From Escherichia coli (GTDB lineage: Bacteria > Pseudomonadota > Gammaproteobacteria > Enterobacterales > Enterobacteriaceae): 64,000 bases of DNA. The position numbers and the translations under genes are program-made. Within the stretch, counting starts at the first letter, position 1. The number at the start of each line of letters is the position of its first letter. This document shows positions 1,565 to 34,837 of the stretch, in pieces. The stretch lies in NCBI RefSeq assembly GCF_013122565.1, contig NZ_CP053258.1; one strand, 5' to 3'. The notes beneath the pieces are model-generated. The model was not told where the DNA came from and ran no database searches. It saw only the letters and a list, made by a program, of their open reading frames with translations.

Positions 1565-1877
1565 AAGTATGCACACGGGCAGCACGACGCTGCCCGATTG
1601 CTTTCTGGTTCAGAATAATTCGTCCTACTCATTCTTCCTCCCCCTTTTTTAAATACTTCTTCATCTTGTTTCGGACTGTCATGTAATTCGCAAAACGAAG
1701 ATAAATGTGCTAATCCATCCCATGGAATATCGCCACAATAAAGCAGGTAATTTTTTGATTTTTACGCCATGATAGAAGTCTGGAAGAAAAAGGCTTTCTG
1801 CGATCACAGTCGAGCCGGGCGGGCCAGGCCAAATGCTAAAATAAGCACAATTTACTGACTCATTTTGAGGTAACGCT

Positions 1878-3664: not shown

Positions 3665-5089
3665 TTACTGCATTAACAGGTAGATGGTGCTGTCGCCGCG
3701 CTGAATGTTCAGTGCCAGCACAGACGGTTTGCTGTCGAGAACTTTACGCAGTTCAGCGATGTTTTTCACTGCCTGCTGGTTCGCGCCAATAATCACATCA
3801 CCTTTCTTCAGGCCGATCTGCGCAGCCGGAGTGCCCGTTTTCACGTTGTTCACTACCACGCCCTGATCTTTGCCTTTGTTGCTCATCTCAGCGCCTTCAA
3901 TGCCGTTGAAGATGGAGCTGGAATCAACCTGATTCTGGCTGCTCTGCTGCAGTTCCAGGTTCACGTTAACCTGCTTACCGTCGCGCAGTAAGCCCAGAGT
4001 CAGTTTGCTACCCACCGGCATAGTACCCACCTGAGCACGCAGCGCGGCAAAGCTGCTGATCGGCTTACCGTTCAGTGAGGTGATCACATCACCCGCTTTA
4101 ATGCCCGCTTTTGCAGCGGAGGAATTAGGCAGAACCTGGCTTACGAAAGCACCGCGCTGGGCGTCAACTTTCATCGCTTTGGCCAGTTCGGAGTTCAGCT
4201 CAGTCCCCATAATACCCAGCTCACCGCGTTTCACCTGGCCGTATTCCACCATCTGCGAGGTCAGGTTTTTCACCATGTTACTCGGGATAGCAAAACCGAT
4301 ACCGATGTTGCCGCCGTCCGGTGCGAGGATCGCGGTGTTGATACCGATCAGTTCGCCGTTCAGGTTAACCAGCGCACCACCGGAGTTACCACGGTTGATC
4401 GCAGCATCGGTCTGGATGAAGTTTTCGTAGTTTTCGGCATTCAGGCCGCTACGCCCCAGCGCAGAGACAATCCCGGAAGTTACCGTCTCGCCCAGACCAA
4501 ATGGGTTACCAATCGCTACGGTGTAATCACCCACGCGCAGTGCATCAGAATCCGCCATCTTAATTGCGGTCAGGTTTTTTGGGTTCTGGATTTGGATCAG
4601 CGCGATATCAGAGCGCGGATCTTTGCCAACCATCTTCGCGTCGAACTTACGACCATCGCTCAGCTGGACTTTAATCACTGTCGCGTTATCAACAACGTGG
4701 TTGTTGGTGACGACATAGCCTTTATCGGCATCAATGATGACGCCGGAACCCAGCGCCATGAATTTTTGTTGCTGGCCGCCACCATTACCGCCCTGGCCCC
4801 CCTGGCAGAACGGAGAGCTCTGGAACGGAGAACCTTCCTGGCAGAACGGTGAATCATCACCGAAGAACTGCTGGAAATTACGCGGCATACGCGGCGTATT
4901 AACGGTTGTGCTACCTTCTACGTTAATGCTGACCACTGAAGGCATCACCTTTTCGAGCATCGGTGCAAGGCTTGGCATCTGCTGGGCTGTCGTTGCTGAA
5001 GATGTCTCAGCCGCCGTTGCAGAGAGCGGAGATAACGCCAAACCTAAACTCAGAGCCAGTGCACTCAGTGCTAATGTGGTTTTTTTCAT
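3665..5089 (-). CDS. degP: Periplasmic serine endoprotease DegP (HtrA)
   Basis: 474-aa ORF with signal peptide, trypsin-like protease core (GNSGGAL) and two PDZ-like C-terminal repeats; recognised as DegP. Confidence 0.96.
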   Translation of the reverse strand: MKKTTLALSALALSLGLALSPLSATAAETSSATTAQQMPSLAPMLEKVMPSVVSINVEGSTTVNTPRMPRNFQQFFGDDSPFCQEGSPFQSSPFCQGGQGGNGGGQQQKFMALGSGVIIDADKGYVVTNNHVVDNATVIKVQLSDGRKFDAKMVGKDPRSDIALIQIQNPKNLTAIKMADSDALRVGDYTVAIGNPFGLGETVTSGIVSALGRSGLNAENYENFIQTDAAINRGNSGGALVNLNGELIGINTAILAPDGGNIGIGFAIPSNMVKNLTSQMVEYGQVKRGELGIMGTELNSELAKAMKVDAQRGAFVSQVLPNSSAAKAGIKAGDVITSLNGKPISSFAALRAQVGTMPVGSKLTLGLLRDGKQVNVNLELQQSSQNQVDSSSIFNGIEGAEMSNKGKDQGVVVNNVKTGTPAAQIGLKKGDVIIGANQQAVKNIAELRKVLDSKPSVLALNIQRGDSTIYLLMQ

Positions 5090-5134
5090 GTATTTCAGTC
5101 TCGATTAACAGATAACGCAAAATTGCTGTGTTCT

Positions 5135-6736: not shown

Positions 6737-6819
6737 GTCCTCTCCCGCGTGAGAAATACGCTTCCCCGTAAGCGCATGGTAAACTATGCCTTCAAATCGG
6801 GCTTATCGCGAGTAAATCT

Positions 6820-7518
6820 ATGAAAATCGGCATCATTGGTGCAATGGAAGAAGAAGTTACGCTGCTGCGTGACAAAATCGAAAACCGTCAAACTATCAGT
6901 CTCGGCGGTTGCGAAATCTATACCGGCCAACTGAATGGAACCGAGGTTGCGCTTCTGAAATCGGGCATCGGTAAAGTCGCTGCGGCGCTGGGTGCCACTT
7001 TGCTGTTGGAACACTGCAAGCCAGATGTGATTATTAACACCGGTTCTGCCGGTGGCCTGGCACCAACGCTGAAAGTGGGCGATATCGTTGTCTCGGACGA
7101 AGCGCGTTATCACGACGCGGATGTCACGGCATTTGGTTATGAATACGGTCAGTTACCAGGCTGTCCGGCAGGCTTTAAAGCTGACGATAAACTGATCGCT
7201 GCCGCTGAGGCCTGCATTGCCGAACTGAATCTTAACGCTGTACGTGGCCTGATTGTTAGCGGCGACGCTTTCATCAACGGTTCTGTTGGTCTGGCGAAAA
7301 TCCGCCACAACTTCCCACAGGCCATTGCTGTAGAGATGGAAGCGACGGCAATCGCCCATGTCTGCCACAATTTCAACGTCCCGTTTGTTGTCGTACGCGC
7401 CATCTCCGACGTGGCCGATCAACAGTCTCATCTTAGCTTCGATGAGTTCCTGGCTGTTGCCGCTAAACAGTCCAGCCTGATGGTTGAGTCACTGGTGCAG
7501 AAACTGGCACATGGCTAA
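6820..7518 (+). CDS. mtnN: 5'-methylthioadenosine/S-adenosylhomocysteine nucleosidase
   Basis: 232-aa [27 protein letters not shown]... recognised as MtnN (Pfs). Confidence 0.96.
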
Positions 7519-8311
7519 ATCACTGTTCAGGGCGCTGGTCGCCCTGTCTTTTCTCGCGCCACTGTGGCTCAACGCCGCGCCGCGCGTCATCACGCTTTCT
7601 CCCGCCAACACTGAACTTGCCTTTGCCGCCGGGATCACGCCGGTTGGGGTCAGCAGCTATTCCGACTATCCTCCACAAGCGCAAAAGATTGAGCAGGTTT
7701 CCACCTGGCAGGGGATGAATCTGGAACGCATTGTGGCGCTGAAACCCGATCTGGTGATTGCCTGGCGTGGAGGTAATGCCGAGCGGCAGGTTGACCAGCT
7801 AGCTTCGCTGGGAATAAAAGTGATGTGGGTCGATGCGACAAGCATTGAACAAATTGCCAATGCGTTACGTCAACTGGCCCCCTGGAGTCCGCAACCAGAC
7901 AAGGCAGAACAAGCCGCGCAATCCCTGCTGGATCAGTACGCGCAATTGAAAGCGCAATATGCTGATAAACCTAAAAAACGTGTTTTTCTGCAATTCGGCA
8001 TTAATCCGCCATTTACCAGTGGAAAAGAGTCGATTCAGAACCAGGTACTCGAAGTTTGTGGCGGAGAAAACATCTTTAAAGACAGCCGGGTTCCCTGGCC
8101 GCAAGTTAGCCGCGAACAGGTGTTAGCACGCTCGCCACAGGCGATTGTCATTACAGGCGGACCGGACCAAATTCCTAAAATCAAACAATACTGGAGTGAA
8201 CAGCTCAAAATTCCCGTTATTCCTCTCACGAGTGACTGGTTTGAACGTGCAAGCCCACGTATTATCCTCGCTGCACAACAGCTCTGTAATGCGCTTTCAC
8301 AGGTAGATTAG
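7511..8311 (+). CDS. btuF: Vitamin B12 periplasmic binding protein BtuF
   Basis: Track ORF 7484..8311; recognised BtuF N-terminus [14 protein letters not shown] starts at the ATG at 7511, overlapping the mtnN stop by 8 nt; signal peptide present. Confidence 0.9.
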
Positions 8312-8348
8312 CGCCTGACCTTTTCAGGTGCTCAGTGGGGATTGAACA

Positions 8349-8972
8349 ATGCTCGTCTATTGGCTGGATATAGTCGGCACAGCGGTATTTGCCATCTCCG
8401 GCGTTTTGTTAGCCGGAAAATTGCGTATGGACCCTTTTGGTGTTCTGGTATTAGGCGTGGTTACCGCAGTAGGCGGCGGAACAATTCGCGACATGGCGCT
8501 GGATCACGGCCCGGTATTTTGGGTGAAAGATCCCACCGATCTGGTCGTTGCAATGGTCACCAGCATGCTGACCATCGTGCTGGTGCGCCAGCCAAGACGC
8601 TTACCAAAATGGATGTTGCCGGTGCTGGACGCCGTTGGTCTGGCGGTGTTTGTAGGCATTGGCGTGAATAAAGCCTTTAATGCGGAAGCCGGTCCGTTAA
8701 TCGCGGTTTGTATGGGCGTCATTACTGGCGTTGGCGGCGGGATCATTCGTGATGTTCTGGCCCGCGAAATCCCCATGATTTTACGTACAGAAATCTACGC
8801 AACAGCCTGTATTATCGGCGGTATTGTCCACGCTACGGCTTATTACACATTTTCCGTACCACTGGAAACAGCCAGTATGATGGGCATGGTCGTGACGCTA
8901 TTGATTCGGCTGGCGGCTATTCGTTGGCATCTTAAGCTACCGACGTTTGCGCTGGATGAGAATGGGCGTTGA
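8349..8972 (+). CDS. yadS: UPF0126 inner membrane protein YadS
   Basis: 207-aa hydrophobic ORF with duplicated GGGxIRD motif; recognised as YadS. Confidence 0.9.
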   Translation: MLVYWLDIVGTAVFAISGVLLAGKLRMDPFGVLVLGVVTAVGGGTIRDMALDHGPVFWVKDPTDLVVAMVTSMLTIVLVRQPRRLPKWMLPVLDAVGLAVFVGIGVNKAFNAEAGPLIAVCMGVITGVGGGIIRDVLAREIPMILRTEIYATACIIGGIVHATAYYTFSVPLETASMMGMVVTLLIRLAAIRWHLKLPTFALDENGR

Positions 8973-8981
8973 AGAGAGAAG

Positions 8982-9008: not shown

Positions 9009-9018
9009 GAACAACAGA

Positions 9019-9363
9019 TTAGATGCTAAAGGAAGAACCGCAACCGCAGGTGCTTTTCGCGTTCGGGTTGGTCACGATGAAACGAGAACCTTCCAGTCCT
9101 TCGGTATAGTCAACGGAACCGCCGACCAGATATTGCAGGCTCATCGGATCAACCACCAGGCCAACGCCCTGTTTTTCGATGGTCATATCGCCTTCGTTCA
9201 CCTGATCATCAAAGGTGAAACCATACTGGAAGCCGCTGCAACCGCCACCGGTGATATACACGCGTAATTTCAGATTCGGGTTATCTTCGTCAGCGATCAG
9301 GCTTTTAACTTTGTTGGCTGCTGCGTCGGTAAACTCCAGCGGCAGTGCTACGTCATCACTCAT
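9019..9363 (-). CDS. erpA: Iron-sulfur cluster insertion protein ErpA (A-type carrier)
   Basis: Track ORF 9019..9396; recognised start [19 protein letters not shown] at 9363; C-terminal CGCGSSF motif. Confidence 0.92.
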
Positions 9364-9444
9364 ATTTTGCTCCAAACGACATCGGCAATTGGGCAAATTC
9401 TAACCCAATAATAATCGCCATTATCTAATACCCTGGTATTTCGT

Positions 9445-12528: not shown

Positions 12529-14511
12529 TTAACGGCTCTGCTTTCTCAACAAATAGATAAAATATGGCGCGCCGATAAAGGTCGACAGCAGCCCCGCCGG
12601 GATCTGGAATGGAAACAGCACCATCCGTCCACACCAGTCAGCGAATACCAGCAGTAAACCACCCACCAGCGCCGAAATTACGATGTGTGGCATCGTCCGT
12701 CGAAAACCCATCATCCGCGCAATATGCGGTGCCATTAAACCAACAAAACTCAACGGTCCAATAGTCATCGTCGCGGTCGCCGTCAGGCAAGCCGCTAATA
12801 GCAGCAGCGCAATTCGCGTCGGCGTCAGCGCCATTCCTACGGCTCGTGCGGTATCACCACCCAGCGGTAAAATGGTCAGCCAGCGGCGGTACAGCGGGGT
12901 AATCGCCAGCAAAATCACCATCACAATTCCGGTACGCCAGACCTGCGCATCGGTCGCGTTGTAGGTCGAACCGGAAATCCAGGTCAGCACTTGCGCCATT
13001 CGCGGGTCACCGCTCGCCTGCAACATCATCAAAAGCATGGTGAATGCGGTACTTAACGCCATCCCCGCCAGTAACATACGGTGTGGGGAAAATCCACCGC
13101 GGCCGGCGGCGATCATAATGATCAACAGCGTCACCGCCGCCCCGATACTGCCCGCGGGTAACAGCCAGCCAAAGGCATTACCCGGCACCAGAAACAGCAT
13201 TAACACCACGCCAAACGCCGCGCCGGAGCTAATCCCCAGCACTTCCGGGCTTGCCATCGGGTTTCCGGTCAGCCGCTGAATAATACAGCCCACCACCGCC
13301 AGCATGACGCCCGCAAACAGCGCCGCCATAATTCGCGGCCAGCGCCAGGGCATCAAATCATCGAGCAACGCCCCGCTCGCCCACGTCCAGCCGTGCGCAT
13401 CACGACCAAACGACAGCGCCACCACCACAGCCATCAACAGCAGCACGCCGCCCGCGAGGGCAAACGCCAGCACATGTTGGCGTTCAGCCGCGACACGATC
13501 GTTGACCTTCATATCCGGCGCGCTAATGCTGCGTAAACGCGGCAGCAACCACAGTAGCAGCGGCGCACCGATCAACGCAGTGACCGAACCGGTGGACACT
13601 TCCATCCACACGCGAGTCAGCCAGAGGATGATTTGATCGGAAAGCCAGAGGATCAGCGCACCAATCAGCGACGCCAGCATCAACCGTGGCAGCAGACGCC
13701 GCGCCCCCAGCATTTTTGCCAGCAACGGCGCGAACAAACCGATAAAGCCGATAATCCCCACCGCGTTCACCAGCAGCGCACTGATGACAATAGCCAGCGA
13801 CAGCGCCGCCAGACGCGCGAGCGACAAGGCCAGCCCGAGATTGCGCGCCACGCCATCATCAAGCCCCATCAGGGTTAACGGACGAAGTAGCAATAACGTC
13901 AGCATCACGCCGCCCAGCAGCTGCGGCCATAAACGCTCAACGCCGCCCCAGTCGGTTTGCGTCAGCGTTCCGGTGCTCCACAGGAACATGCTTTGCAACT
14001 GGTCATGATGGAAGATAACCAGTAACTGATTGATTGCCCCACAATAAAGGCTCACTACCAGCCCCGCGAGAATCAGCGTTACCGGCGACAGCCGTTTCCC
14101 CCACGCGACGCCAAAGACAATTAAGCCAACAACGCAAGCCCCTGCCAGCGCAGCAAACTGGCTCGCCATAGCACCTGGGATCGCCCAGAGCGTAGTGACG
14201 GTAATCCCCAGTTGCGCGCCTGTAGCAACGCCAAGTGTCGTCGGTTCCGCCAGCGGGTTACGCAGCACTTGCTGAAACAGCACGCCCACCAGCCCCAGGC
14301 CCGCGCCCACCAGCAGCGAAATCGCCAGACGCGGCAACAAGCTGTAGTGAAAAATCATCTGCTCGATGACATCGATATCCGGCGACCAGGCGGCCTGCGC
14401 CCACTGGCTGCGCGGCAGCGCCTGTGAGAAGTTCATCCAGGTGAGCACCGTAGCGACAATCACCAATAGCGCCAGCAATAATGCCGGGAAAAGCGCAATT
14501 CGTTTACTCAC
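12529..14511 (-). CDS. fhuB: Ferric hydroxamate ABC transporter permease FhuB (fused double permease)
   Basis: 660-aa polytopic membrane ORF with two homologous halves; recognised as FhuB; start overlaps fhuD stop. Confidence 0.95.
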   Translation of the reverse strand: MSKRIALFPALLLALLVIVATVLTWMNFSQALPRSQWAQAAWSPDIDVIEQMIFHYSLLPRLAISLLVGAGLGLVGVLFQQVLRNPLAEPTTLGVATGAQLGITVTTLWAIPGAMASQFAALAGACVVGLIVFGVAWGKRLSPVTLILAGLVVSLYCGAINQLLVIFHHDQLQSMFLWSTGTLTQTDWGGVERLWPQLLGGVMLTLLLLRPLTLMGLDDGVARNLGLALSLARLAALSLAIVISALLVNAVGIIGFIGLFAPLLAKMLGARRLLPRLMLASLIGALILWLSDQIILWLTRVWMEVSTGSVTALIGAPLLLWLLPRLRSISAPDMKVNDRVAAERQHVLAFALAGGVLLLMAVVVALSFGRDAHGWTWASGALLDDLMPWRWPRIMAALFAGVMLAVVGCIIQRLTGNPMASPEVLGISSGAAFGVVLMLFLVPGNAFGWLLPAGSIGAAVTLLIIMIAAGRGGFSPHRMLLAGMALSTAFTMLLMMLQASGDPRMAQVLTWISGSTYNATDAQVWRTGIVMVILLAITPLYRRWLTILPLGGDTARAVGMALTPTRIALLLLAACLTATATMTIGPLSFVGLMAPHIARMMGFRRTMPHIVISALVGGLLLVFADWCGRMVLFPFQIPAGLLSTFIGAPYFIYLLRKQSR

Positions 14512-15398
14512 GCTTTACCTCCGATGGCGTTATCCAGAACGCGCACAAAGTGCATTGCCGAGAGCGTCGCACCATAAAACCAGACTGCGGGTACGCGCTG
14601 AAAGCGTCCGGCGCGGACAAACGGCATGGCCTGCCACAGCGGCGTTGCCATTAGCGCATCCATGTCTTTGCTGTTGTCGTGATCAAAACAGAGCACATCA
14701 ACGTCTTTATACGCTGCCAGACGATCGATGCTGACGGCGGTACTGCCCCAGAAGTTGGTTTCCCCTTGCCAGGCATTTGGGATGCCGTACTCATCAAGAA
14801 TTTCCTGGAACAAGCTGTTTGGACCGAAGACCAGCATATGGCGCGGATCGATAAGCGTCGTCAGCAATAACGGACGCGCACCACGCTTCACAAAGCGGGG
14901 TTTCATGCTGCGGATAAAGTCTTCATATTGCGCTAAATGCGTTTCTGCTGCGCTTTGCAGGTTAAGTAAATCCGCCATTTCCGTCAGCGATTTACGCGCC
15001 ATCGCCAGCGGCTGTTTGCCGTCACTGAAGTCAAATCCGCGACCCGGCGCAATACGTGCCAGCATTTCTGGTGAAGGGCCATATCCTGCCGACCAGACCA
15101 TAAACGACGGTTTCATTTCGGTCAGCAATTCAAGGTTAGGTTCTGTACGCAAACCGACGTCAATCACTGAGTCCGGCAATGGTGGTTCGCTGACCCACAG
15201 GCGATAGTTGATGGTGTCCGCCACGCCGTAAGGCACGATGCCGAGCGCCAGCAGTAATTCCACCGGCAACCACTCCAGCGCCACAATACGATTGGGGTCA
15301 ATAGCCGCCGCGTGGGCGGTATTCATCTGCCATAACAACGGAGAAAGCGCCATCGCCGTTAACAGTCGACGGCGCGAAATAAGAGGTAAGCCGCTCAT
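14508..15398 (-). CDS. fhuD: Ferric hydroxamate periplasmic binding protein FhuD
   Basis: Recognised N-terminus MSGLPLISRRRLLTAMALSPLLW (Tat-like RRR motif); ATG at 15398 overlaps the fhuC TGA (ATGA); the track ORF begins one codon earlier at a TTG. Confidence 0.93.
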   Translation of the reverse strand: MSGLPLISRRRLLTAMALSPLLWQMNTAHAAAIDPNRIVALEWLPVELLLALGIVPYGVADTINYRLWVSEPPLPDSVIDVGLRTEPNLELLTEMKPSFMVWSAGYGPSPEMLARIAPGRGFDFSDGKQPLAMARKSLTEMADLLNLQSAAETHLAQYEDFIRSMKPRFVKRGARPLLLTTLIDPRHMLVFGPNSLFQEILDEYGIPNAWQGETNFWGSTAVSIDRLAAYKDVDVLCFDHDNSKDMDALMATPLWQAMPFVRAGRFQRVPAVWFYGATLSAMHFVRVLDNAIGGKA

Positions 15399-16195
15399 CA
15401 ATAAACAAAACTCACAGGTGCAGCACCCGCCGGATGCGGCAAAATACCCATCGGGATGCCATAAATCATTTCGAGGGTTTCGCCGCGCATAATTTCCGCA
15501 GGCGTTCCCTGAGCAATCATTTCACCGCCGCGCAGGGCGACCAGATAATCACAGTAGCGTGCCGCCATATTGATATCGTGCAGCACGGCAATCACCGTCA
15601 GGCCACGTTCCTGACTTAAACGGTGCACCAGCGCCAGCACATCAACCTGGTGGGCGATATCCAACGCCGAAGTCGGTTCGTCGAGCAACAGACAACGGCT
15701 ATCCTGCGCCACCAGCATGGCGATCCACGCCCGCTGACGTTCGCCGCCAGAGAGACTATCGACCAGCCGATGCGCCAGCGGTTTTAAGCCAACCAGCGAG
15801 ATAGCTTCCTCGACCTTTTCGCGATCTGCCGCACCAAAGCGCCCTAGTGCGCCATGCCAAGGGTAACGACCAATCGCCACCAGTTCACGCACGGTCATCC
15901 CTTCTGCCGGAGGAAGCTGCTGCGGTAAATAAGCCACTTTGCGGGCAAACGCTTTGCTGCTCCAGCTTTCCAGCGGCTGGGCATCAAGAAGAATCTCACC
16001 TTCCGACGGTGGCTGATGACGGCCAAGCATTTTGAGCAGAGTGGATTTACCAGAACCGTTGTGACCAATCAGACCGGTCACTTTCCCGGCAGGAAAGGTT
16101 AACGACAGTGGATGCAAAAGCGTGCGCCCGGGCACACGAAAGGAGATATTACGCAGTGCAAAAGTGGTATCGGAATGATTCGTGTATTCCTGCAT
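15398..16195 (-). CDS. fhuC: Ferric hydroxamate ABC transporter ATP-binding protein FhuC
   Basis: Track ORF 15398..16237; recognised start MQEYTNHSDTTFALRNISF at 16195; Walker A GHNGSGKST and ABC signature LSGGERQR. Confidence 0.93.
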   Translation of the reverse strand: MQEYTNHSDTTFALRNISFRVPGRTLLHPLSLTFPAGKVTGLIGHNGSGKSTLLKMLGRHQPPSEGEILLDAQPLESWSSKAFARKVAYLPQQLPPAEGMTVRELVAIGRYPWHGALGRFGAADREKVEEAISLVGLKPLAHRLVDSLSGGERQRAWIAMLVAQDSRCLLLDEPTSALDIAHQVDVLALVHRLSQERGLTVIAVLHDINMAARYCDYLVALRGGEMIAQGTPAEIMRGETLEMIYGIPMGILPHPAGAAPVSFVY

Positions 16196-21244: not shown

Positions 21245-21337
21245 GCTTTTTCTCCGCAATATTCAGGCGCAAAAGCCCGATTTTCTGTTCTTCTGTTGCA
21301 AGACAGAAGAAGATATCTCTCAAATTTGCTTTGGTCT

Positions 21338-23767
21338 TCACGAATACTTTTTCGTCCGTCGCGTCGGTGCCGTGTTTGCCGGGTCATCCGGCCAGACGTG
21401 TTTGGGATAACGCCCTTTCATCTCCTTTTGCACCTCACGATACGCCCCTTTCCAGAAGGCCCCCAAATCACGCGTGATTTGCAGCGGCCTTTGGGCAGGG
21501 GAAAGCAACTCCAGCACCAGCGGCACGCGCCCCTGGGCGATCGTCGGATTGGTGGCCTCGCCAAACATCTCTTGCATTCTCACCGCCAGCGCGGGCGGGT
21601 TATCTTCATGATAACGAATGGCGATCCGGCTTCCCGTCGGCACAGTGTAATGCGCAGGCAATTCACTATCCAGACGTTGCTGCATTCCCCAATCAAGTAA
21701 TCCGCGTAGTGCCTGATAAATGTCGAGTGATTTCAGGCCGCGTAGTGAATGTACACCGGCCATATGTGGCAGCAGCCACGTTTCCAGCGTCGCCAATAAA
21801 CTTTCATCATCAACCGCTGGCCAGTCATATTCTGGCAACCACTTTGCGGCGCATAACAAACGCAAGCGTAGCTGTTCCGCTTCCGCCGTCCAGTTGAGCA
21901 CGCTTAAACCTTTATCACGAATGCCGTTAAGCATCGCCTGATGCAACTCGTCTTCTGACGGTTTCGCCAGTGGCTGCACTTTCACCGTCAACTGACCGAT
22001 TTGCAGCCGACGCCAGGCTTTCAGCGTACCTTGCGCGTCATCCCATTCCACGGTGTCAGATTGCTGCACCAGCTGCGGACAGCGTTGTACTAATTCATCA
22101 ATATCGACCGGTAGCGCCAGTAAAATCCGCGCATCCGGCGAGGCGCTGCCCTGCAATAATAACGGTGCGATCAACCATTCGTGGCGGCTTAGCGCGTCGT
22201 CGGCATCGAGCATCGCTCCCATGCCGTTTGCCAGTTGATAGCGTCCATCTTGCCCACGGCGACGAGCAATGCGATCGGCAAACGCCCCGGCAAGTAGCGG
22301 CGCGATAAGCGAACTGTCTGCCTCACCGCCGCGTACGTTTAAGTGTTTTAACAGTTGCTGACTACGTTGCTGCCAGGCTGGTTGATTGCGCGAAAACGCC
22401 ACGCCCAGGTCACTATTGCCCATCCGTGGCGGCTCTTCGAGAATGGCGGCAATTTTTGCCGCGGTAGCAGCTTCGTCGTCGCTCTTTGCGCTAACCAGCA
22501 TTGCCGCTAAACGCGGATCGTTACCCAGCGCTGCCATTTTTTGCCCTTGCGCACTAAGCCGTTCACCGTCCAGCGCCCCTAGCATCTTTAACAGGCGTTT
22601 CGCGGCCAGTAAATTCACTGCTGGCGGTTGATCCAGCCAGCTCATCTGCGCCGGATCGCTGCATCCCCATTGCAGTAATTCCATCAGCAAACCGGAAAGA
22701 TCGCTTTGTAAGATCTCCGGTTCACTTTGCGCGGCAGCGCGTTCTGCTTGTTCTTTGGCGATTAAATGTAGGCAGATACCCGGCTCCAGACGCCCGGCAC
22801 GCCCGGCACGCTGCGTCATCGACGCCTGACTGATTCGCTGAGTAATCAACCGCGTAAGCCCTGTTCGCGGATCAAAACGCGCCACCCTTTCCTGGGCACA
22901 ATCCACCACCAGACGAATACCTTCGATGGTTAAACTGGTTTCAGCAATATTGGTCGCCAGCACCACTTTGCGCATCCCTTGCGGTGCCGGGAGGATCGCT
23001 TTTCGCTGATCGTTTAGCGACAACGCGCCATACAGCGGGCAGAGCAACACATCACTGCCGATGCGCGAAGCCAGTTGTTCCTGCACACGCTGAATTTCTC
23101 CGACGCCAGGTAAAAATAACAGTAATGATCCACTTTCCTGACGCAGCATTTCGGCGGTGGCAACCGCGACGGCTTCGTCAAAACGCTGATGCGCGGGCAG
23201 CGGTAAATAACGGCGTTCAACCGGAAACGAGCGCCCTTCTGAGATGACGACGGGCGCTTCTGGCAGCATTTGCTGCAAGCGGTCGTTGTCCAGCGTAGCC
23301 GACATAATCAGCAGTTTAAGGTCATCACGCAGACCTTGTTGCACATCGAGTAACAACGCCAACGCCAAATCCGCCTGCAAGCTGCGCTCATGAAATTCAT
23401 CAAGGATCACCAATCCAACACCGCTCAGTTCCGGGTCACGCTGGATCATCCGCGTCAGCACGCCTTCGGTAACCACTTCCAGGCGGGTATTCGGCCCGAC
23501 GCAGTTTTGCGCACGCATCCGGTAGCCAACGGTATCGCCTGGCTTTTCGTTAAGCAGCTCCGCCAGCCGTTGCGCGACGTTACGCGCCGCCAGACGACGC
23601 GGCTCCAGCAGGATAATTTTCCCGTTAATGCCGGGATGCGCCAGCAGTTGCAGCGGCAGCCAGGTTGATTTCCCGGCCCCGGTCGGCGCACTTAATAACA
23701 CCTGCGGCGCACAATCGAGAGCGGTAAGTAATTCAGGTAAGACGGCAGCAACGGGCAACGACGACAC
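21338..23767 (-). CDS. hrpB: ATP-dependent RNA helicase HrpB (DEAH-box)
   Basis: Track ORF 21338..23812; the recognised N-terminus (V/M)SSLPVAAVLPELL corresponds to a GTG at 23767 preceded by GGAG; Walker A GAGKST and DEFH motifs. Confidence 0.9.
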   Translation of the reverse strand: MSSLPVAAVLPELLTALDCAPQVLLSAPTGAGKSTWLPLQLLAHPGINGKIILLEPRRLAARNVAQRLAELLNEKPGDTVGYRMRAQNCVGPNTRLEVVTEGVLTRMIQRDPELSGVGLVILDEFHERSLQADLALALLLDVQQGLRDDLKLLIMSATLDNDRLQQMLPEAPVVISEGRSFPVERRYLPLPAHQRFDEAVAVATAEMLRQESGSLLLFLPGVGEIQRVQEQLASRIGSDVLLCPLYGALSLNDQRKAILPAPQGMRKVVLATNIAETSLTIEGIRLVVDCAQERVARFDPRTGLTRLITQRISQASMTQRAGRAGRLEPGICLHLIAKEQAERAAAQSEPEILQSDLSGLLMELLQWGCSDPAQMSWLDQPPAVNLLAAKRLLKMLGALDGERLSAQGQKMAALGNDPRLAAMLVSAKSDDEAATAAKIAAILEEPPRMGNSDLGVAFSRNQPAWQQRSQQLLKHLNVRGGEADSSLIAPLLAGAFADRIARRRGQDGRYQLANGMGAMLDADDALSRHEWLIAPLLLQGSASPDARILLALPVDIDELVQRCPQLVQQSDTVEWDDAQGTLKAWRRLQIGQLTVKVQPLAKPSEDELHQAMLNGIRDKGLSVLNWTAEAEQLRLRLLCAAKWLPEYDWPAVDDESLLATLETWLLPHMAGVHSLRGLKSLDIYQALRGLLDWGMQQRLDSELPAHYTVPTGSRIAIRYHEDNPPALAVRMQEMFGEATNPTIAQGRVPLVLELLSPAQRPLQITRDLGAFWKGAYREVQKEMKGRYPKHVWPDDPANTAPTRRTKKYS

Positions 23768-26745: not shown

Positions 26746-28143
26746 ATTTTTACCCGAGTCGCTAATTTTTGCCGCAAGGTGCTAAGCCGCGAGGAAAGCG
26801 AGGCTGAACAGGCAGTCGCCCGTCCACAGGTGACGGTGATCCCGCGTGAGCAGCATGCTATTTCCCGCAAAGATATCAGTGAAAATGCCCTGAAGGTAAT
26901 GTACAGGCTCAATAAAGCGGGATACGAAGCCTGGCTGGTTGGCGGCGGCGTGCGCGACCTGTTACTTGGCAAAAAGCCGAAAGATTTTGACGTAACCACT
27001 AACGCCACGCCTGAGCAGGTGCGCAAACTGTTCCGTAACTGCCGCCTGGTGGGTCGCCGTTTCCGTCTGGCTCATGTGATGTTTGGCCCGGAGATTATCG
27101 AAGTTGCGACCTTTCGTGGACACCACGAAGGTAACGTCAGCGACCGCACGACCTCCCAACGTGGGCAAAACGGCATGTTGCTGCGCGATAACATCTTCGG
27201 CTCCATCGAAGAAGACGCCCAGCGCCGCGATTTCACTATCAACAGCCTGTATTACAGCGTAGCGGATTTTACCGTCCGTGATTACGTTGGCGGCATGAAG
27301 GATCTGAAGGACGGCGTTATCCGTCTGATTGGTAACCCGGAAACGCGCTACCGTGAAGATCCGGTACGTATGCTGCGCGCAGTACGTTTTGCCGCCAAAT
27401 TGGGTATGCGCATCAGCCCGGAAACCGCAGAACCGATCCCTCGCCTCGCTACCCTGCTGAACGATATCCCACCGGCACGCCTGTTTGAAGAATCGCTTAA
27501 ACTGCTACAAGCGGGCTACGGTTACGAAACCTATAAGCTGCTGTGTGAATATCATCTGTTCCAGCCGCTGTTCCCGACCATTACCCGCTACTTCACGGAA
27601 AATGGCGACAGCCCGATGGAGCGGATCATTGAACAGGTGCTGAAGAATACCGATACGCGTATCCATAACGATATGCGCGTGAACCCGGCGTTCCTGTTTG
27701 CCGCCATGTTCTGGTACCCACTGCTGGAGACGGCACAGAAGATCGCCCAGGAAAGCGGCCTGACCTATCACGACGCTTTCGCGCTGGCGATGAACGACGT
27801 GCTGGACGAGGCCTGCCGTTCACTGGCAATCCCGAAACGTCTGACGACGTTAACCCGCGATATCTGGCAGTTGCAGTTGCGTATGTCCCGACGTCAGGGT
27901 AAACGCGCATGGAAACTGCTGGAGCATCCTAAGTTCCGTGCGGCTTATGACCTGTTGGCCTTGCGAGCTGAAGTTGAACGTAACGCTGAATTGCAGCGTC
28001 TGGTGAAATGGTGGGGTGAGTTCCAGGTTTCCGCGCCACCAGACCAAAAAGGGATGCTCAACGAGCTGGATGAAGAGCCGTCACCGCGTCGCCGTACTCG
28101 TCGTCCACGCAAACGCGCACCGCGTCGTGAGGGTACCGCATGA
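26746..28143 (+). CDS. pcnB: Poly(A) polymerase I
   Basis: Nucleotidyltransferase family ORF ([10 protein letters not shown]); track ORF starts 26725, but E. coli pcnB is reported to initiate at a non-canonical AUU codon, giving (M)[16 protein letters not shown] at 26746 (465 codons); stop overlaps folK start. Confidence 0.85.
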
Positions 28144-28619
28144 CATTGGCGTATATTGCCATAGGCAGCAATCTGGCCTCTCCGCTGGAGCAGGTCAATG
28201 CTGCCCTTAAAGCATTAGGCGATATCCCTGAAAGCCGCATTCTTGCCGTTTCTTCGTTTTACCGCACCCCACCGCTGGGGCCGCAAGATCAACCCGATTA
28301 CCTCAACGCCGCCGTGGCGCTTGAAACTTCGCTCGCCCCGGAAGAGTTACTCAACCATACACAGCGCATAGAACTGCAACAGGGTCGTGTTCGTAAAGCT
28401 GAACGCTGGGGACCACGCACGCTGGATCTCGACATCATGCTGTTTGGTAATGAAGTGATAAATACCGAACGCCTGACCGTTCCGCACTACGATATGAAGA
28501 ATCGTGGATTTATGCTATGGCCGCTGTTTGAGATTGCACCGGAGTTGGTGTTTCCTGATGGGGAGACGTTGGCGACAAGGCTCACCAATTTGAACGCCTT
28601 ATGCCCACAACGCTGGTGA
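28140..28619 (+). CDS. folK: 2-amino-4-hydroxy-6-hydroxymethyldihydropteridine pyrophosphokinase (HPPK)
   Basis: 159-aa [30 protein letters not shown]...; start overlaps pcnB stop (ATGA); the last ~17 residues ([19 protein letters not shown]) differ from the K-12 HPPK tail as I remember it. Confidence 0.93.
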
Positions 28620-29023
28620 ACTTGCTATAGCAAAGAGTAAATTCATTCAGCGTTTTCTTTACGTTTTTTTAATATTAATTCTTTCTCAAATCTAAGCATA
28701 ATATTTAATAAAACGCATTTCATAGCTTTCGTGTTTTTGTCTGTGCGCTAACTATTCCGACAATAGATTAGTTAAAAAGCCTTCACCACCTTATTGATAC
28801 ATTAAAAGAATAACAGATGTAAAAATACAGACTTTTAAACGCCCAATTAATAAAAACATCATTCAAACAAATAATTAAAGATTATAAATACACACAATGA
28901 ATATTATTTATTTTCTCGCCCCCTTACATTCACCAGATCTATTTTTATTCCATTTGCATAAGCTTTATAATTTGCTGAGGTGACTCTTCTCACCTCTCTA
29001 TTATTTTTATAAGGACATTAAAT
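28620..29023 (+). promoter_or_regulatory. AT-rich ~400-bp upstream region of the fimbrial operon (likely promoter, candidate H-NS-silenced)
   Basis: Long, strongly A+T-rich non-coding stretch with many A/T tracts directly upstream of the fimbrial major-subunit gene; no ORF. Confidence 0.5.
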
Positions 29024-29596
29024 ATGTTAAAGAAAAGCGCTATTGCTGCGGCATTAGTTATGTTTACCAGTTCGGCCTTCGCGCTGGATGGCGGCCAGCT
29101 GGATTTCGCAGGTTTGGTGAGTGACAACACGTGTATCCTGCACGTCAACGGTGGTGCACAGGATGGACAAATTAATCTTGCAACCGCCACAACGGCTGAA
29201 GTTACAGGTGCTGGCGTAGTCAATGCAGCCAGTGTCGGCGCGAAACCTGAACCGTTCTCTATTACAGTGGATTGCTCAGCAAACACGCCTGCCGCCGCTG
29301 AAGCCAATCTGAATATGAGCTCAGTTTTCTTCAGTAACAGCCAGGGCACCCTGAATAACGATATGTCCGTAAGCCAGGCGGCAAGCGGCGTCGCTATTGC
29401 CGTTCACTATGTACCAAGCGCCGGCACTTTCGAGCAGGTCAAAATCAATGACAGCACCGATATTAAAAACCTCACGTTAACCAACGGTAAAGGGACCTGG
29501 AACTTCCAGGCATCTTACGTTAAGCAGGCAGCGTCGATTCCTGTCGTTGCCGGGTTTGTGAAAACCAACGCGGCTTATACGATCACTTACCCGTAA
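29024..29596 (+). CDS. yadN: Fimbrial major subunit (chaperone-usher pathway), yadN-position
   Basis: 190-aa ORF with signal peptide and C-terminal aromatic donor-strand motif (YTITYP); first gene of a 7-gene operon in the yadN position next to folK; symbol assigned by position and architecture, sequence divergent from K-12. Confidence 0.8.
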   Translation: MLKKSAIAAALVMFTSSAFALDGGQLDFAGLVSDNTCILHVNGGAQDGQINLATATTAEVTGAGVVNAASVGAKPEPFSITVDCSANTPAAAEANLNMSSVFFSNSQGTLNNDMSVSQAASGVAIAVHYVPSAGTFEQVKINDSTDIKNLTLTNGKGTWNFQASYVKQAASIPVVAGFVKTNAAYTITYP

Positions 29597-29658
29597 TTCA
29601 GATACAGACCAGGCAGTCGATGTCGGGCTGCCTGTATGACTTTAATAAGGACATCATT

Positions 29659-30402
29659 ATGACCAGGACGCGTCAGTTACTCCTTGCTTCACTTTTCACC
29701 TGCGCAGGTGCATTAGCCAGCTTTTCCGCCTGTGCCGATATTGTGCTTTCCGGCACGCGTATTATTTACAACGCAAGTCAGAAAGAAGTCTCCCTGCGTA
29801 TGGAAAACAAAGGCAGCCGCCCGCTGCTGGTACAAACGTGGATCGATACCGGGAGTGAAAACGCGGATCCCAGCACCATCACCGTGCCTTTTACCGTCAC
29901 GCCACCGGTCTCTCGTGTGGACGGTAAACGTGGGCAGACGGTGAAAATCGCCTGGAATACCAGCCAAACGTTGCCCGCCGATCGCGAAAGTGTTTTCTGG
30001 TTCAATGCGCTGGAAGTCCCCCCCAAAATGAGCGAGACCGAGGCTCAGGGGAAAAATATCCTGCAACTGGCGTTCCGCACCCGCATCAAGCTGTTTTATC
30101 GCCCGGCTAACCTGGTCGGCAGCGCCCCGGACGCCCCCAAACAACTGACCTGGCATCTGCAATCCTCTGGCGGGAAAGTTGTGCTTCAGGCCACTAACCC
30201 AACGCCATTCCACGTCTCTTTTAGCGGTATTAGCCTGATTTCGGGCGGAAAAAAATACGCCGTCGACGCCACGATGGTCTCCCCGAAAAGCAGCGCTGAC
30301 ATGACGGTGAAAGGTCTGAGCACAGCGCCCGCTGGCGCGACGATTGACTATATCGCCATTAACGACTTCGGCGGCGCCATTGAAGGCAAAGTGAAGCTTT
30401 GA
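29659..30402 (+). CDS. yadV: Periplasmic fimbrial chaperone (PapD-like), yadV/ecpD-position
   Basis: Track ORF 29620..30402; start set at MTRTRQLLLASLF (29659) with AAGGA SD; PapD-like chaperone features. Confidence 0.82.
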   Translation: MTRTRQLLLASLFTCAGALASFSACADIVLSGTRIIYNASQKEVSLRMENKGSRPLLVQTWIDTGSENADPSTITVPFTVTPPVSRVDGKRGQTVKIAWNTSQTLPADRESVFWFNALEVPPKMSETEAQGKNILQLAFRTRIKLFYRPANLVGSAPDAPKQLTWHLQSSGGKVVLQATNPTPFHVSFSGISLISGGKKYAVDATMVSPKSSADMTVKGLSTAPAGATIDYIAINDFGGAIEGKVKL

Positions 30403-30432
30403 CGCGCTGAATAACCACGCAGGGATTGCACA

Positions 30433-33054
30433 ATGACGACGCCTTTCAACGGCACAAAATTTCCCCTCTCTCCACTCGCTTGTCTGGTGGCGTGCAGTCT
30501 GCTGCCCTGCGCGTACAGCGCCATGGCGGCAGAGGAAGCCGTTGAATTTGATAACACCTTCCTGATGGGGGCCGGTGCCAGGAATATCGACGTCAATCGC
30601 TACAGTGATGGCAACCCCGCGTTACCTGGTCGTCACGACGTTAGTGTGTTTATCAACAATAAGCCGACCAGCAATCTGTCCATCGAGTTTATTGAAATAG
30701 CGAATAGCCGTAGCGCCCAACCCTGTATTTCTGCCAGCACCCTGCTCCAGTTGCATATTCGCCTGCCGGATAATCTCGACGATACGGCGATTTTGCAGAA
30801 ACGGGACAGTACCGCGCAGGACTGTCTTAATCTTGAGGTCGCCATTCCCCAGTCCAGCCTCACCTATAACAGTAACGATCAGCGGCTGGACATTAATGTG
30901 CCTCAGCTGTGGTTGCAAAAAACTTACGCTAACTATGTGGATCCTTCCCTGTGGGACGAAGGGATCAACGCAGCCATGTTTTCTTACACGCTGAATGGCT
31001 GGCGCAGTGAGTCGCCCAATCAAACCGCAGAAAGTACCTATGCCGGGCTGATGGGCGGCTTTAATTTATGGGGATGGCACTTCCGGTCGCACGGCAACTA
31101 TTCATGGGACAAAGAGAGTGGCGGCAGTTTCGAGTTCCAGGACAAGTACCTGCAACGTGATATCGTCAAACTGCGGTCGCAGCTGGTTGTCGGTGAAACC
31201 AACACCACGGGGGAGACCTTTGATTCCGTTCGTATTCGCGGGGTTCGTCTCTACAGCGAAAGCCGCATGCTGCCACCGACGCTCGCCTCTTACGCGCCGG
31301 TGATCCGTGGGGTCGCAAACTCCAACGCCAAAGTAACGATTACCCAGAACGGCTACAAGATTTACGAAACGACGGTGCCGCCAGGCCCCTTTGCTATCGA
31401 TGACTTATCGCCAGCCGGATTTGGTGCCGATCTCGAAGTCACGGTCACCGAATCTGACGGCTCACAGCGAACATTCACCCAGGCCTATTCATCGGTGATC
31501 CAGATGATGCGCCCCGGCGTGGGCAAATGGGACATCAGCGCGGGTGAAGTCAAAAAGGATGAGCTAAAGGACAATCCCAACCTGATACAGGGAACGTACT
31601 ACTACGGGTTAAGCAATACGTTTACCGGCTATACCGGCCTGCAAATGACCGATAACGGCTACTGGGCCGGGTTGTTAGGGCTTGGGATGAACACCTCATT
31701 GGGGGCATTTTCCCTGGATGTGACGCAGTCGCACACCGAAATTCCCAACGATAAAACCTATGAGGGCCAGAGCTACCGTATTTCGTGGAACAAATATTTT
31801 GCACCGACCGAAACGTCACTCAACATTGCGGCCTATCGCTACTCGACAAAAAACTATCTCGGCCTGAACGATGCCTTAACGCTGATTAACTCCGCTAACC
31901 ATCCTTATGATGATGGCTACAAGGGAATCGTCTCCTATGGGCGTATGAAAAACCAGTTCAGCGTCAGCCTCAACCAGACGTTAAAAAATGGCGAGCGGGA
32001 TTATGGTTCCTTCTATCTGAATGGGACCTGGACGGACTACTGGGTTACGAATGAATCACAGAGTAGTTTTGCGTTTGGTTACAGCAACGGCTTTGACTGG
32101 GCCAGCTACAGCGTCAGCCTGCAACGAACCTATGATGAAGACAATAACAAAGATGACTCTATCTATCTCAGCTTGACCATCCCGCTGGACAAACTGTTTG
32201 GCCGCGATAGCCGCGAAGGGGGCTTCAGAACGCTCAATACCAGTGTCAACAGCGATATGAAAGGCAGCTCGCAATATAACGCTAACGCCACCGGCTACAG
32301 CCAGGACAACCGCTGGAACTACAGCGTCAACACCTCCTATAACGCAATGAAAGAGACGGAGAGCCTGAAAACCATCAGTGGTTTCACCAGCTATGAGTCC
32401 CCCTGGGGAACCCTTTCCGGTTCCGTCTCCGCCAGTAGCGACCACAGTCGTCAGTATGGCGTGAGTACCGATGGCGGCTTTGTGCTACATCGCCACGGGC
32501 TCACGTTTAGCAACGATAGTTTCACCGACTCAGACACGCTGGCGCTGGTCAATGCCCCCGGCGCGAAAGGGGCGCAAATCAACTTTGGCAGCAGTACCGT
32601 GGACCGATTTGGCTACGGGGTGACCAGTGCGCTTTCTCCGTATCACGAAAACACCGTCGCCCTCAACGTAGACAACCTGGATGAAGATGTAGAGCTAAAA
32701 AGCACCAGCACCGTTGCGATCCCACGCCAGGGTGCCGTTATCTTCAGCCATTTCGACACTGACACCGGGCGTTCCGCCATTCTTAACCTGCTGCGCAGTG
32801 ATAAACAGCCCGTACCGTTTGCTTCCGATGTCACGGACAGCCGTGGGCAGTCCATCGGCACGGTTGGGCAAGGGAGCCAGGCTTTCGTTCGCGGCATTGC
32901 CGACGAAGGGGATCTGGTGGTTTCCTGGTATGAAAAAAATAGCCAGAAACAGTGTCGCATTCACTACCAGATACCGCCCTCTCCCACCATGACGGGCAAA
33001 ACTATCGTATTAAACGCCGTGCCCTGCACCCTGCAATCACAGGAGAGGAAATGA
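30433..33054 (+). CDS. htrE: Fimbrial outer membrane usher (PapC/FimD family), htrE-position
   Basis: 873-aa ORF with signal peptide, conserved usher core (RLYSESRMLPPTLASYAPVIRGVANSNAKVTITQNGYKIYETTVPPGPF) and C-terminal Cys pair. Confidence 0.88.
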   Translation: MTTPFNGTKFPLSPLACLVACSLLPCAYSAMAAEEAVEFDNTFLMGAGARNIDVNRYSDGNPALPGRHDVSVFINNKPTSNLSIEFIEIANSRSAQPCISASTLLQLHIRLPDNLDDTAILQKRDSTAQDCLNLEVAIPQSSLTYNSNDQRLDINVPQLWLQKTYANYVDPSLWDEGINAAMFSYTLNGWRSESPNQTAESTYAGLMGGFNLWGWHFRSHGNYSWDKESGGSFEFQDKYLQRDIVKLRSQLVVGETNTTGETFDSVRIRGVRLYSESRMLPPTLASYAPVIRGVANSNAKVTITQNGYKIYETTVPPGPFAIDDLSPAGFGADLEVTVTESDGSQRTFTQAYSSVIQMMRPGVGKWDISAGEVKKDELKDNPNLIQGTYYYGLSNTFTGYTGLQMTDNGYWAGLLGLGMNTSLGAFSLDVTQSHTEIPNDKTYEGQSYRISWNKYFAPTETSLNIAAYRYSTKNYLGLNDALTLINSANHPYDDGYKGIVSYGRMKNQFSVSLNQTLKNGERDYGSFYLNGTWTDYWVTNESQSSFAFGYSNGFDWASYSVSLQRTYDEDNNKDDSIYLSLTIPLDKLFGRDSREGGFRTLNTSVNSDMKGSSQYNANATGYSQDNRWNYSVNTSYNAMKETESLKTISGFTSYESPWGTLSGSVSASSDHSRQYGVSTDGGFVLHRHGLTFSNDSFTDSDTLALVNAPGAKGAQINFGSSTVDRFGYGVTSALSPYHENTVALNVDNLDEDVELKSTSTVAIPRQGAVIFSHFDTDTGRSAILNLLRSDKQPVPFASDVTDSRGQSIGTVGQGSQAFVRGIADEGDLVVSWYEKNSQKQCRIHYQIPPSPTMTGKTIVLNAVPCTLQSQERK

Positions 33055-33623
33055 GATTCTTTTTACGGTTAATCCTGTTACTGACGACGCTGCTCAATGC
33101 CTCGTGGGCGTTGGCCGTCAATATTTCGGTTAACTTTACCGCGACGATCAAAGAGACCACCTGCGCCATGACGGTGAGCGCACTCAATGGCGCGAATCTT
33201 AGCGGTGACTCGGCATCAGAGAACTACTTTCTGGATTTACCCACAATGGGGGTTTCCGATATCACCAATAAAACGTCCAAAACCGAAGCCAGCTTTAAGC
33301 TATTACCGATTAACTGTAATAACTACATCTCCAGCATGTCGATGACCATTGGCGGTAAACACAGCGGTTATACCGACACGTTGCTGGTGAATGATTCCTC
33401 GGTTACAGGAGGAGCCAGTTACATTGGCGTGGGCTTTAAACGGCTTAATGACGATGACAGCCTGCGGTTTAAGGTGGATGGAACGACGTCAATTAACTGG
33501 ACACGCAATGACATTGCCAATGGATTTGATATTACTGGAATAGTTCGCCGGACAACGAGTTCTTACAACATGATACCCGGTCTGGTTCAGACAAAAGCGA
33601 TATTCGTTTTTACTTATAACTAA
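33051..33623 (+). CDS. yadM: Fimbrial minor subunit, yadM-position
   Basis: Start MRFFLRLILLLTTLL at ATG 33051 overlapping the usher stop (ATGA), AGGAGAGG SD; 190 aa; C-terminal FVFTYN. Confidence 0.78.
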   Translation: MRFFLRLILLLTTLLNASWALAVNISVNFTATIKETTCAMTVSALNGANLSGDSASENYFLDLPTMGVSDITNKTSKTEASFKLLPINCNNYISSMSMTIGGKHSGYTDTLLVNDSSVTGGASYIGVGFKRLNDDDSLRFKVDGTTSINWTRNDIANGFDITGIVRRTTSSYNMIPGLVQTKAIFVFTYN

Positions 33624-33635
33624 CAGGGATGGTGT

Positions 33636-34232
33636 ATGAATTATCAACGCATAATTGTAGCGCTATTGTTAATCATCGGAATAAATACGCAATGCCTGGC
33701 TGGCTCCAGTTCGTTGAACGTGACGGTGAGGACAACCGTTACCGCCAGTACCTGCACAGCAGAGCTTCACAATGCGCAGGACCTGCAAGCGACAACAATT
33801 GATATTGGTGATGTCTATCTGAACGAACTTGCAAATAAGACTAAATATCAGAATTTCAGCCTGGTGTTTTCAAATTGTGAAGGCTTAGCCAAAGATCAGG
33901 CGACCGTCACACTTTCTCCGCAAACAGGCTGCGATGGTGCATCCAGTACGGGTGGCGGATTTCGCAACGCACTGGCCTCCAGCGACAATGATGCGGCAAC
34001 CGGCGTATCGATTGAAGTATGGACGACCAATCAGCCGGAAGGTCAGGGAAGTGTGCAGCTAAACTGCAAGACAAAACCGACCAGTATTGTCGATCTGACG
34101 GGCGCGTCAGGTGCGAACGTTGTCCACTGGTGGTTAAGCTCCAGAATTGTCGTCGCCGCGGATAACACTATCGCCGATGTACGTGCAGGGCAGTTCTCCA
34201 CCAACGCTGTCTTTTCAGTAACCTATGAGTAA
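33636..34232 (+). CDS. yadL: Fimbrial minor subunit, yadL-position
   Basis: 198-aa ORF with signal peptide; C-terminal FSVTYE donor-strand-like motif. Confidence 0.78.
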   Translation: MNYQRIIVALLLIIGINTQCLAGSSSLNVTVRTTVTASTCTAELHNAQDLQATTIDIGDVYLNELANKTKYQNFSLVFSNCEGLAKDQATVTLSPQTGCDGASSTGGGFRNALASSDNDAATGVSIEVWTTNQPEGQGSVQLNCKTKPTSIVDLTGASGANVVHWWLSSRIVVAADNTIADVRAGQFSTNAVFSVTYE

Positions 34233-34238
34233 ACGACG

Positions 34239-34811
34239 ATGAAATCACGTTTTCGACTGTTCGTTTCCGGCTTATGGTTTATTACAGCGGCCTGTATTGC
34301 CAACACCAATATTAATATGACCGCCAACGTTGTCAGCACCAGTTGCAAAGTCACCCTCGACAATAGCGGCAGCATTGATTTAGGCACGGTTAATTACGAC
34401 TATCTGAACACGAATACTGCCGTGGATCGCGTTTATACCGGTGGTCAGGCGTTCTACATCACCGTCAGTGACTGCGCGCAGATGGCGGGTAAAAATCCTT
34501 CCCGTCTTACGGTGAGTTTTACGCCCGTCGGGGGTACCCTCGGCGCAACTAATCAACAGGTTTTTGCCAATCAGGCAGCCGATGGCGCTAAAAACGTCGG
34601 CATCGTAATTTTATCCACCCAGGATGCGCAAAGTATTTTCAATGTGCTGGATACCCACGGCCAATCGCAAAGTATTTACCCCGTGAGCGCGGATCAGCTA
34701 GCCAATGCCACCTACCATTTTTATGCACGGATGCAGAAGATCGACCTGGCGCAAGCCGCCACCAGCGGTGTAGTGCGGGCCAGTGTGTTTGTCGGTGTTT
34801 ATTATGAATAA
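34239..34811 (+). CDS. yadK: Fimbrial minor subunit, yadK-position
   Basis: 190-aa ORF with signal peptide; C-terminal VGVYYE. Confidence 0.78.
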   Translation: MKSRFRLFVSGLWFITAACIANTNINMTANVVSTSCKVTLDNSGSIDLGTVNYDYLNTNTAVDRVYTGGQAFYITVSDCAQMAGKNPSRLTVSFTPVGGTLGATNQQVFANQAADGAKNVGIVILSTQDAQSIFNVLDTHGQSQSIYPVSADQLANATYHFYARMQKIDLAQAATSGVVRASVFVGVYYE

Positions 34812-34837
34812 CGTTTTACGTTCTCAAGGATGATGAA

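Follow-up and report, generated by a model that had tools for sequence, protein, structure and literature searches.

The window analysed here is a 64,000-nucleotide segment of an E. coli-type chromosome that extends from glnD' to pdhR and belongs to one of the best-annotated regions of all genomes. A 10-kb query (positions 6500-16500) found matches covering 80% or more of its length in 5421 of 5426 complete RefSeq E. coli genomes, with a top identity of 98.5%. As no genome exceeded this value, the strain from which the window derives is not one of the 5426, and it may represent an Escherichia/Shigella lineage that has been sampled less. To obtain a gene map, we placed the RefSeq CDSs of strain XYEH3934 on the window, which gave the order glnD'-dapD-yaeH-cdaR-degP-dgt-mtnN-btuF-yadS-erpA-yadW-clcA-hemL-fhuBDCA-mrcB-hrpB-thpR-sfsA-dksA-gluQRS-pcnB-folK in the first half and, after folK, (fimbrial operon)-panBC-rpnC-panD-yadEIHG-can-hpt-gcd-cueO-yacC-speED-yacL-acnB-yacH-lpdA-aceFE-pdhR.

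Several features of this segment were recorded alongside the gene map. The yaeI gene is missing, with the dapD-yaeH interval measuring 128 nt (1600..1727) compared to 842 nt including yaeI in XYEH3934 and K-12 NCM3722. The hrpB-mrcB spacer (21328..21340) is ~101 nt shorter than in XYEH3934, possibly because XYEH3934 has a repeat element there that the window lacks. Rfam matches above the gathering score were obtained for the tp2 sRNA (62916..63029, plus strand), which occupies the aceE-pdhR interval on the opposite strand, and for the HtrA 5' UTR thermometer (5084..5129, minus strand), which lies upstream of degP. The RefSeq start of pcnB is a non-canonical ATT at 26746..26748, a start codon known for E. 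coli pcnB, and the first pcnB ORF call based on ATG, GTG, or TTG (26725, TTG) differs from this annotated start.

The fimbrial operon downstream of folK (28572..36100) encodes a major subunit, a chaperone, an 873-aa usher, three minor subunits, and an adhesin. This operon represents a diverged allele of the yad cluster, with only 66-71% DNA identity to the K-12-type yadV/htrE. Of the 5426 complete E. coli genomes, just 11 contain 80% or more of it, with identity never above 93.9%. Divergence from K-12 starts in the last ~48 nt of folK, such that the C-terminus of FolK differs after residue ~146. Strain ET201 bears the same rare allele, and its annotated usher/minor subunit overlap is also 4 nt.

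A first-pass annotation of the window had drawn attention to six junctions at which the stop codon of one gene overlaps the start codon of the next. We read each junction directly off the window sequence and compared it with the RefSeq (PGAP) gene ends of close E. coli genomes. All six overlaps were present, and a seventh, between yadW and erpA, had been left out of that list. Seven junctions thus join co-directional ORFs by a stop/start overlap of 1, 4, or 8 nt:

7511..7518, plus strand: mtnN stop/btuF start, ATGGCTAA, 8-nt overlap, with the btuF ATG at 7511-7513 and the mtnN TAA at 7516-7518
9356..9363, minus strand: yadW stop/erpA start, ATGAGTGA, 8-nt overlap
14508..14511, minus strand: fhuD stop/fhuB start, GTGA, 4-nt overlap with a GTG start
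15398, minus strand: fhuC stop/fhuD start, TTGATGAGC, TGATG, 1-nt overlap, with TGA at 15400..15398 and ATG at 15398..15396
28140..28143, plus strand: pcnB stop/folK start, ATGA, 4-nt overlap
33051..33054, plus strand: fimbrial usher stop/minor fimbrial subunit start in the divergent yad-like operon, ATGA, 4-nt overlap
42342..42345, minus strand: yadG stop/yadH start, ATGA followed by a second ATG (ATGATG, 42345..42340), 4-nt overlap

The RefSeq gene ends in the close E. coli genomes coincided exactly with the junctions as read, including the mtnN 3' end (...GCA CAT GGC TAA). Five of these junctions had been grouped as 4-nt ATGA overlaps; this description holds for pcnB/folK, usher/minor subunit, and yadG/yadH but not for fhuC/fhuD, which is TGATG, or for fhuD/fhuB, which is GTGA. 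The operons concerned are mtnN-btuF-yadS, fhuACDB, pcnB-folK, the yad-type fimbrial operon, yadGH, and yadW-erpA. The junctions are ordinary features of E. coli operons, all of them in RefSeq, and as such were already known.

The fhuC/fhuD and yadW/erpA junctions each raised an additional question of assignment. A TTG at 15401 could serve as an alternative fhuD start and would convert the fhuC/fhuD junction into a 4-nt TTGA overlap. This start was disfavoured because RefSeq and cross-species conservation both prefer the ATG: just a few species have a TTG that would allow the 4-nt overlap, whereas the ATG at -1 occurs generally. The yadW gene is a 21-aa small gene (9356..9421, minus strand) that ends within the erpA start, and its product has been detected by epitope tagging (VanOrsdel et al. 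2018, PMC6001520); the YadW peptide encoded in the window is identical to the protein tagged in that study. We considered yadW/erpA as a conserved coupled pair and rejected this assignment, since the full 21-codon yadW ORF was kept in a mere handful of 68 Enterobacterales loci. The yadW overlap looks incidental to the conserved MSD start of erpA (ATGAGTGA).

To place the number of overlaps in context, we compared it with published figures for E. coli. Seven of the 37 co-directional adjacent pairs in the window overlap (19%), and eight of the 37 fall in the -8..+6 range. In E. coli, ~15% of ORF pairs overlap (PMC5318159), 707 of 2987 unidirectional pairs lie within -8..+6, and the three commonest distances between unidirectional pairs are -4, -1, and -8 (PMC10666635). 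The window's 19% matches the ~15-24% background range given by these figures, and no enrichment was detected for overlaps relative to the ~15% rate (binomial p = 0.49) or for the -8..+6 range relative to 707/2987 (binomial p = 1.0). The "multiple overlaps" that had been remarked upon are therefore present at normal density.

By chance, 12 of the 48 gene ends in the window that lack an overlapping downstream gene also carry a start-like triplet in the -1, -4, or -8 register. Because such triplets are found at these other gene ends, the motif alone is weak evidence; the seven overlaps are instead validated by the long homologous ORF that starts in the overlapping frame. The background-level count and the chance triplets are what would be expected if the overlaps were by-products of genome compaction and of start and stop codon turnover, with each downstream gene initiating independently and without coupling. 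We regard this neutral explanation as distinctly unlikely for reasons that emerge from the conservation of the junctions, from their Shine-Dalgarno (SD) sequences, and from assays of other native E. coli pairs, each of which is considered below.

The proposal that the overlaps support the chosen start codons was borne out by several observations, namely the RefSeq starts, the conserved geometry, the lack of an alternative start in btuF, and the N-terminus of HPPK. Codons 2-30 of btuF, which encode the signal peptide, contain no in-frame ATG, GTG, or TTG. The first residue in native E. coli HPPK structures (158-residue chains, e.g. 1HKA and 1DY3) is residue 2 of the FolK ORF, which agrees with initiation at the ATG at 28140 followed by removal of the methionine. 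The N-terminal signal sequence of FhuD, which contains RRR, starts at the overlapping ATG. These observations bear on the opposite possibility that the overlaps are annotation artefacts and that the real starts lie further downstream, leaving the genes non-overlapping. Nearby alternatives do exist, such as the second ATG right after the yadH start, a TTG at folK codon 3, and a TTG at fhuB codon 12. However, the start-free signal peptide stretch of btuF, the first residue of the PDB HPPK chains, the position of the fhuD signal sequence, and the finding that the overlapping start is the sole candidate in many species all oppose such a shift, and we give the artefact explanation almost no credence.

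We then assessed how far the overlaps are conserved for mtnN/btuF, fhuC/fhuD, and fhuD/fhuB, using one HemL-centred locus from each of 80 species that ranged from Citrobacter to Providencia; orthologues in these loci were identified by tblastn. Starts outside E. coli were assigned heuristically as the start codon closest to the position that corresponds by homology to the E. coli N-terminus. The register was conserved in orthologous pairs at all three junctions. The mtnN/btuF overlap was -8 in 40 of the 69 species in which the genes are adjacent (30 with GTG and 10 with ATG), spanning Enterobacteriaceae and Erwiniaceae; most loci of Serratia, Yersinia, Rahnella, Ewingella, and Pectobacterium had short distances between -14 and +3, and a few were called at +17 to +59. 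The fhuC/fhuD overlap was -1 in 33 of 55 species, the stop codon being TGA in some and TAA in others, and the remainder were mostly at +1 to +19 nt with a few larger heuristic calls. The fhuD/fhuB overlap was -4 in 43 of 55 species (34 with ATG and 9 with GTG) and -1 in 6.

The alternation between start codons at mtnN/btuF follows from a single base in the upstream gene. In Escherichia, Citrobacter, and some Pantoea, the penultimate Mtn codon (7510..7512) reads CAT (His), which makes the btuF start ATG; most other Enterobacteriaceae and Erwiniaceae have CGT (Arg) at this position, which makes it GTG. Exact -8, -1, and -4 registers that span many genera despite changes in the neighbouring bases and in the start and stop codons themselves are difficult to reconcile with neutral turnover. 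On the other hand, the geometry is not universal, as neutral turnover would predict: mtn and btuF are separated by spacers of 60-205 nt in Photorhabdus, Proteus, Providencia, and Moellerella and of 28 nt in Xenorhabdus, fhuC and fhuD lie +3 to +19 nt apart in Erwinia, Pantoea, and Pectobacterium, and htrE and yadM are separated by a 16-nt gap in the common K-12-type fimbrial allele, at the place where the window has ATGA.

Since initiation at an overlapping start could depend on local ribosome binding signals, the 20 nt 5' of each start were evaluated for duplex formation with the 16S 3' end. The fhuB start is preceded by GGAGG 6 nt upstream, within fhuD (duplex energy -10.8 kcal/mol), yadH by AAGGAG within yadG (-8.5 kcal/mol), and folK by GAGG within pcnB (-6.2 kcal/mol). 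The SDs of the minor fimbrial subunit (-7.4 kcal/mol) and of erpA (-5.6 kcal/mol) are likewise embedded in the upstream ORF. In contrast with these five genes, no SD was found in the 20 nt upstream of btuF (-2.8 kcal/mol) or fhuD (-2.2 kcal/mol). The predicted energy required to open the -18..+12 region was highest for folK (18.5 kcal/mol) and fhuB (14.1 kcal/mol), compared to a mean of 8.4 kcal/mol for the other genes of the window. Overlapping starts as a group were not significantly more structured than the others (11.0 vs 8.4 kcal/mol; Mann-Whitney p = 0.096, n = 7 vs 45), and Rfam returned no RNA element at any junction.

The SD results point in both directions with respect to independent initiation. 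An SD of its own in five of the seven downstream genes is compatible with the neutral explanation, as is the finding that bioBF initiates de novo despite its ATGA overlap (PMC6728339). In contrast, independent initiation would be weak at btuF and fhuD, which have no recognisable SD, and strict coupling was observed in four of the five native E. coli ATGA pairs assayed in the same study, such that downstream translation was lost after an early stop in the upstream gene.

By analogy with these four strictly coupled ATGA pairs, it is plausible that the pairs in the window are translationally coupled. The interpretation that we favour, and consider quite probable, is that the junctions are ordinary annotated cistron junctions at which downstream translation depends partly on upstream translation, with a ratio specific to each pair rather than equal output. 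Two processes could contribute to such dependence. A ribosome terminating on the upstream ORF may re-initiate a few bases away, and an elongating upstream ribosome may unwind structure around the downstream start. Because they lack an SD, btuF and fhuD would be fed mainly by re-initiation 1-8 nt from the stop codon. At fhuB, folK, yadH, the minor subunit gene, and erpA, the SD within the upstream ORF would also permit de novo initiation, and at the first four of these the gene's own SD probably acts in combination with ribosome-assisted opening of structure. The high predicted structure at folK and fhuB suggests that access to these two starts depends on upstream ribosomes. Each junction would thereby set its own, non-equimolar output ratio. 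The overlap itself leaves no space in which a terminator could lie. A literature search found no coupling work on mtn/btuF or fhuCDB, and none on the remaining pairs of the window.

A stronger claim had also been made for these junctions, namely that they imply tight stoichiometric coupling, in which the overlap forces a fixed, near-equimolar output of the downstream relative to the upstream gene. FhuB, FhuC, and FhuD form one ABC importer, and YadG and YadH are a predicted ABC pair, while the stoichiometry of usher and minor pilin is not fixed. No complex is known to contain Mtn together with BtuF or PcnB together with FolK, and the biochemical roles within each of these two pairs are unrelated, which argues against a stoichiometric function for their overlaps. 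Heteromeric-complex subunits are 4.5-fold enriched among short-distance E. coli pairs, as the stoichiometric proposal would have it, although the products of 69.6% of such pairs are not complex partners (PMC10666635).

To compare the output of the genes at these junctions, we used the ribosome-profiling synthesis rates of Li et al. 2014 as carried by the portion of Dataset EV6 of Mori et al. 2021 available to us, in which the value divided by molecular weight gives an integer number of molecules per generation. In these entries, Mtn is synthesized at 1802 and BtuF at 38 molecules per generation, a ratio of 47:1 that places BtuF at ~2% of the Mtn rate (38/1802 = 0.021). FhuC, FhuD, and FhuB are listed at 54, 27, and 11 molecules per generation (4.9:2.5:1), FolK at 172, and ErpA at 4534. 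By mass spectrometry, BtuF is also undetected in all samples, with Mtn at a mass fraction of ~3-5e-4. Unequal mtn and btuF mRNA levels could partly contribute to the 47:1 ratio, so the difference is perhaps not all translational.

Footprint densities were also taken from the NCM3722 ribosome profiling in the accessible part of Mori Dataset EV10, for which we inferred the old locus tag as the RefSeq tag minus 5, a mapping that fits the expression pattern of aceE, aceF, lpdA, and acnB in that dataset. With this inferred mapping, the densities were 39.3, 33.1, and 13.1 rpkm for fhuC, fhuD, and fhuB, respectively, and 44.1 and 43.4 rpkm for yadG and yadH. Thus, given the inferred mapping, yadG/yadH looks like the sole pair near 1:1 in the entries available. 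In a broader comparison, Burkhardt et al. 2017 (PMC5318159) found that relative translation varies alike in 73 overlapping and 253 non-overlapping ORF pairs; the supplements of that study list a TE of 0.50 for pcnB and hold no entry for folK, btuF, fhuB, fhuD, or yadH.

These measurements leave the claim of tight stoichiometric coupling contradicted, at least by the rates carried in the parts of the datasets used. The near-equal densities of yadG and yadH, which encode the ATPase and the permease of one predicted ABC transporter, agree with it under the inferred tag mapping, and the listed FhuC:FhuB rates of 54:11 differ in the direction consistent with a 2:1 complex. However, the 47:1 ratio of Mtn to BtuF and the unequal FhuC:FhuD:FhuB rates in these same entries, the mass spectrometry result for BtuF, and relative translation that is as variable in overlapping as in non-overlapping pairs, all weigh against it, and we judge equimolar output enforced by overlap to be very improbable. 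In the rates listed, synthesis in the proportions of a complex is not a general property of the junctions. A stop/start overlap would accordingly be read as a possible dependence of the downstream gene on upstream translation and not as equimolar output; since Mtn and BtuF synthesis differs 47-fold, overlaps should not be taken to indicate stoichiometry or a physical association of the two proteins.

The favoured reading, partial dependence with pair-specific ratios, leaves room for a more specific suggestion at mtnN/btuF, where the 8-nt overlap has a conserved -8 register and no SD. This junction might act as a fixed-ratio divider, with BtuF arising almost solely from ribosomes that, after termination on mtnN, move back by 5-8 nt. 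We put this suggestion forward tentatively and think it unlikely on balance. If true, it would tie BtuF, the periplasmic B12-binding protein, to a small constant fraction (~2%) of Mtn synthesis and would link B12 uptake, for MetH, to the SAM/SAH recycling enzyme Mtn of the same methyl cycle. The overall significance of the seven overlaps is small: they corroborate the starts of genes in a region of E. coli that was already well annotated, and they exemplify a textbook operon feature.

Among known systems, the junctions most resemble the ATGA/TGATG overlaps of termination-reinitiation (TeRe) coupling described for E. coli and Haloferax (Huber et al. 2019, PMC6728339; Huber et al. 2023, PMC10666635). 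They share the -4, -1, and -8 geometries and the arrangement of co-directional operon genes, and in most cases an SD lies within the 3' part of the upstream ORF. The junctions differ in that the window pairs are not among the five E. coli pairs assayed (hyfHI, astDB, ydbH/ynbE, menDH, and bioBF; PMC6728339) and in that btuF and fhuD lack the SD common to most such pairs. The overlapping or abutting stop and start codons also recall the classical coupled operons (trpB-trpA, trpE-trpD, galT-galK, atpHA, and rplJL), as these are cited in PMC6728339 and PMC5318159; according to those citations, coupling in the classical operons was demonstrated by polar nonsense mutations, whereas we infer it for the window pairs.

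The model of Tian and Salis 2015 (PMC4538824) combines a small re-initiation yield with coupling via ribosome-assisted unfolding and thus bears on both processes considered here. The re-initiation slope in their designed operons was at most 0.022, and the BtuF/Mtn ratio of 0.021 from the Dataset EV6 entries is of the same order; the slope derives from synthetic reporters, and we infer its extension to the native junctions of the window. For one junction, the published precedent is the same locus: pcnB-folK is transcribed as a dicistronic mRNA with an ATGA overlap (Mohanty and Kushner 2006, PMC1636475), and the junction described there is identical to that at 28140..28143 of the window.
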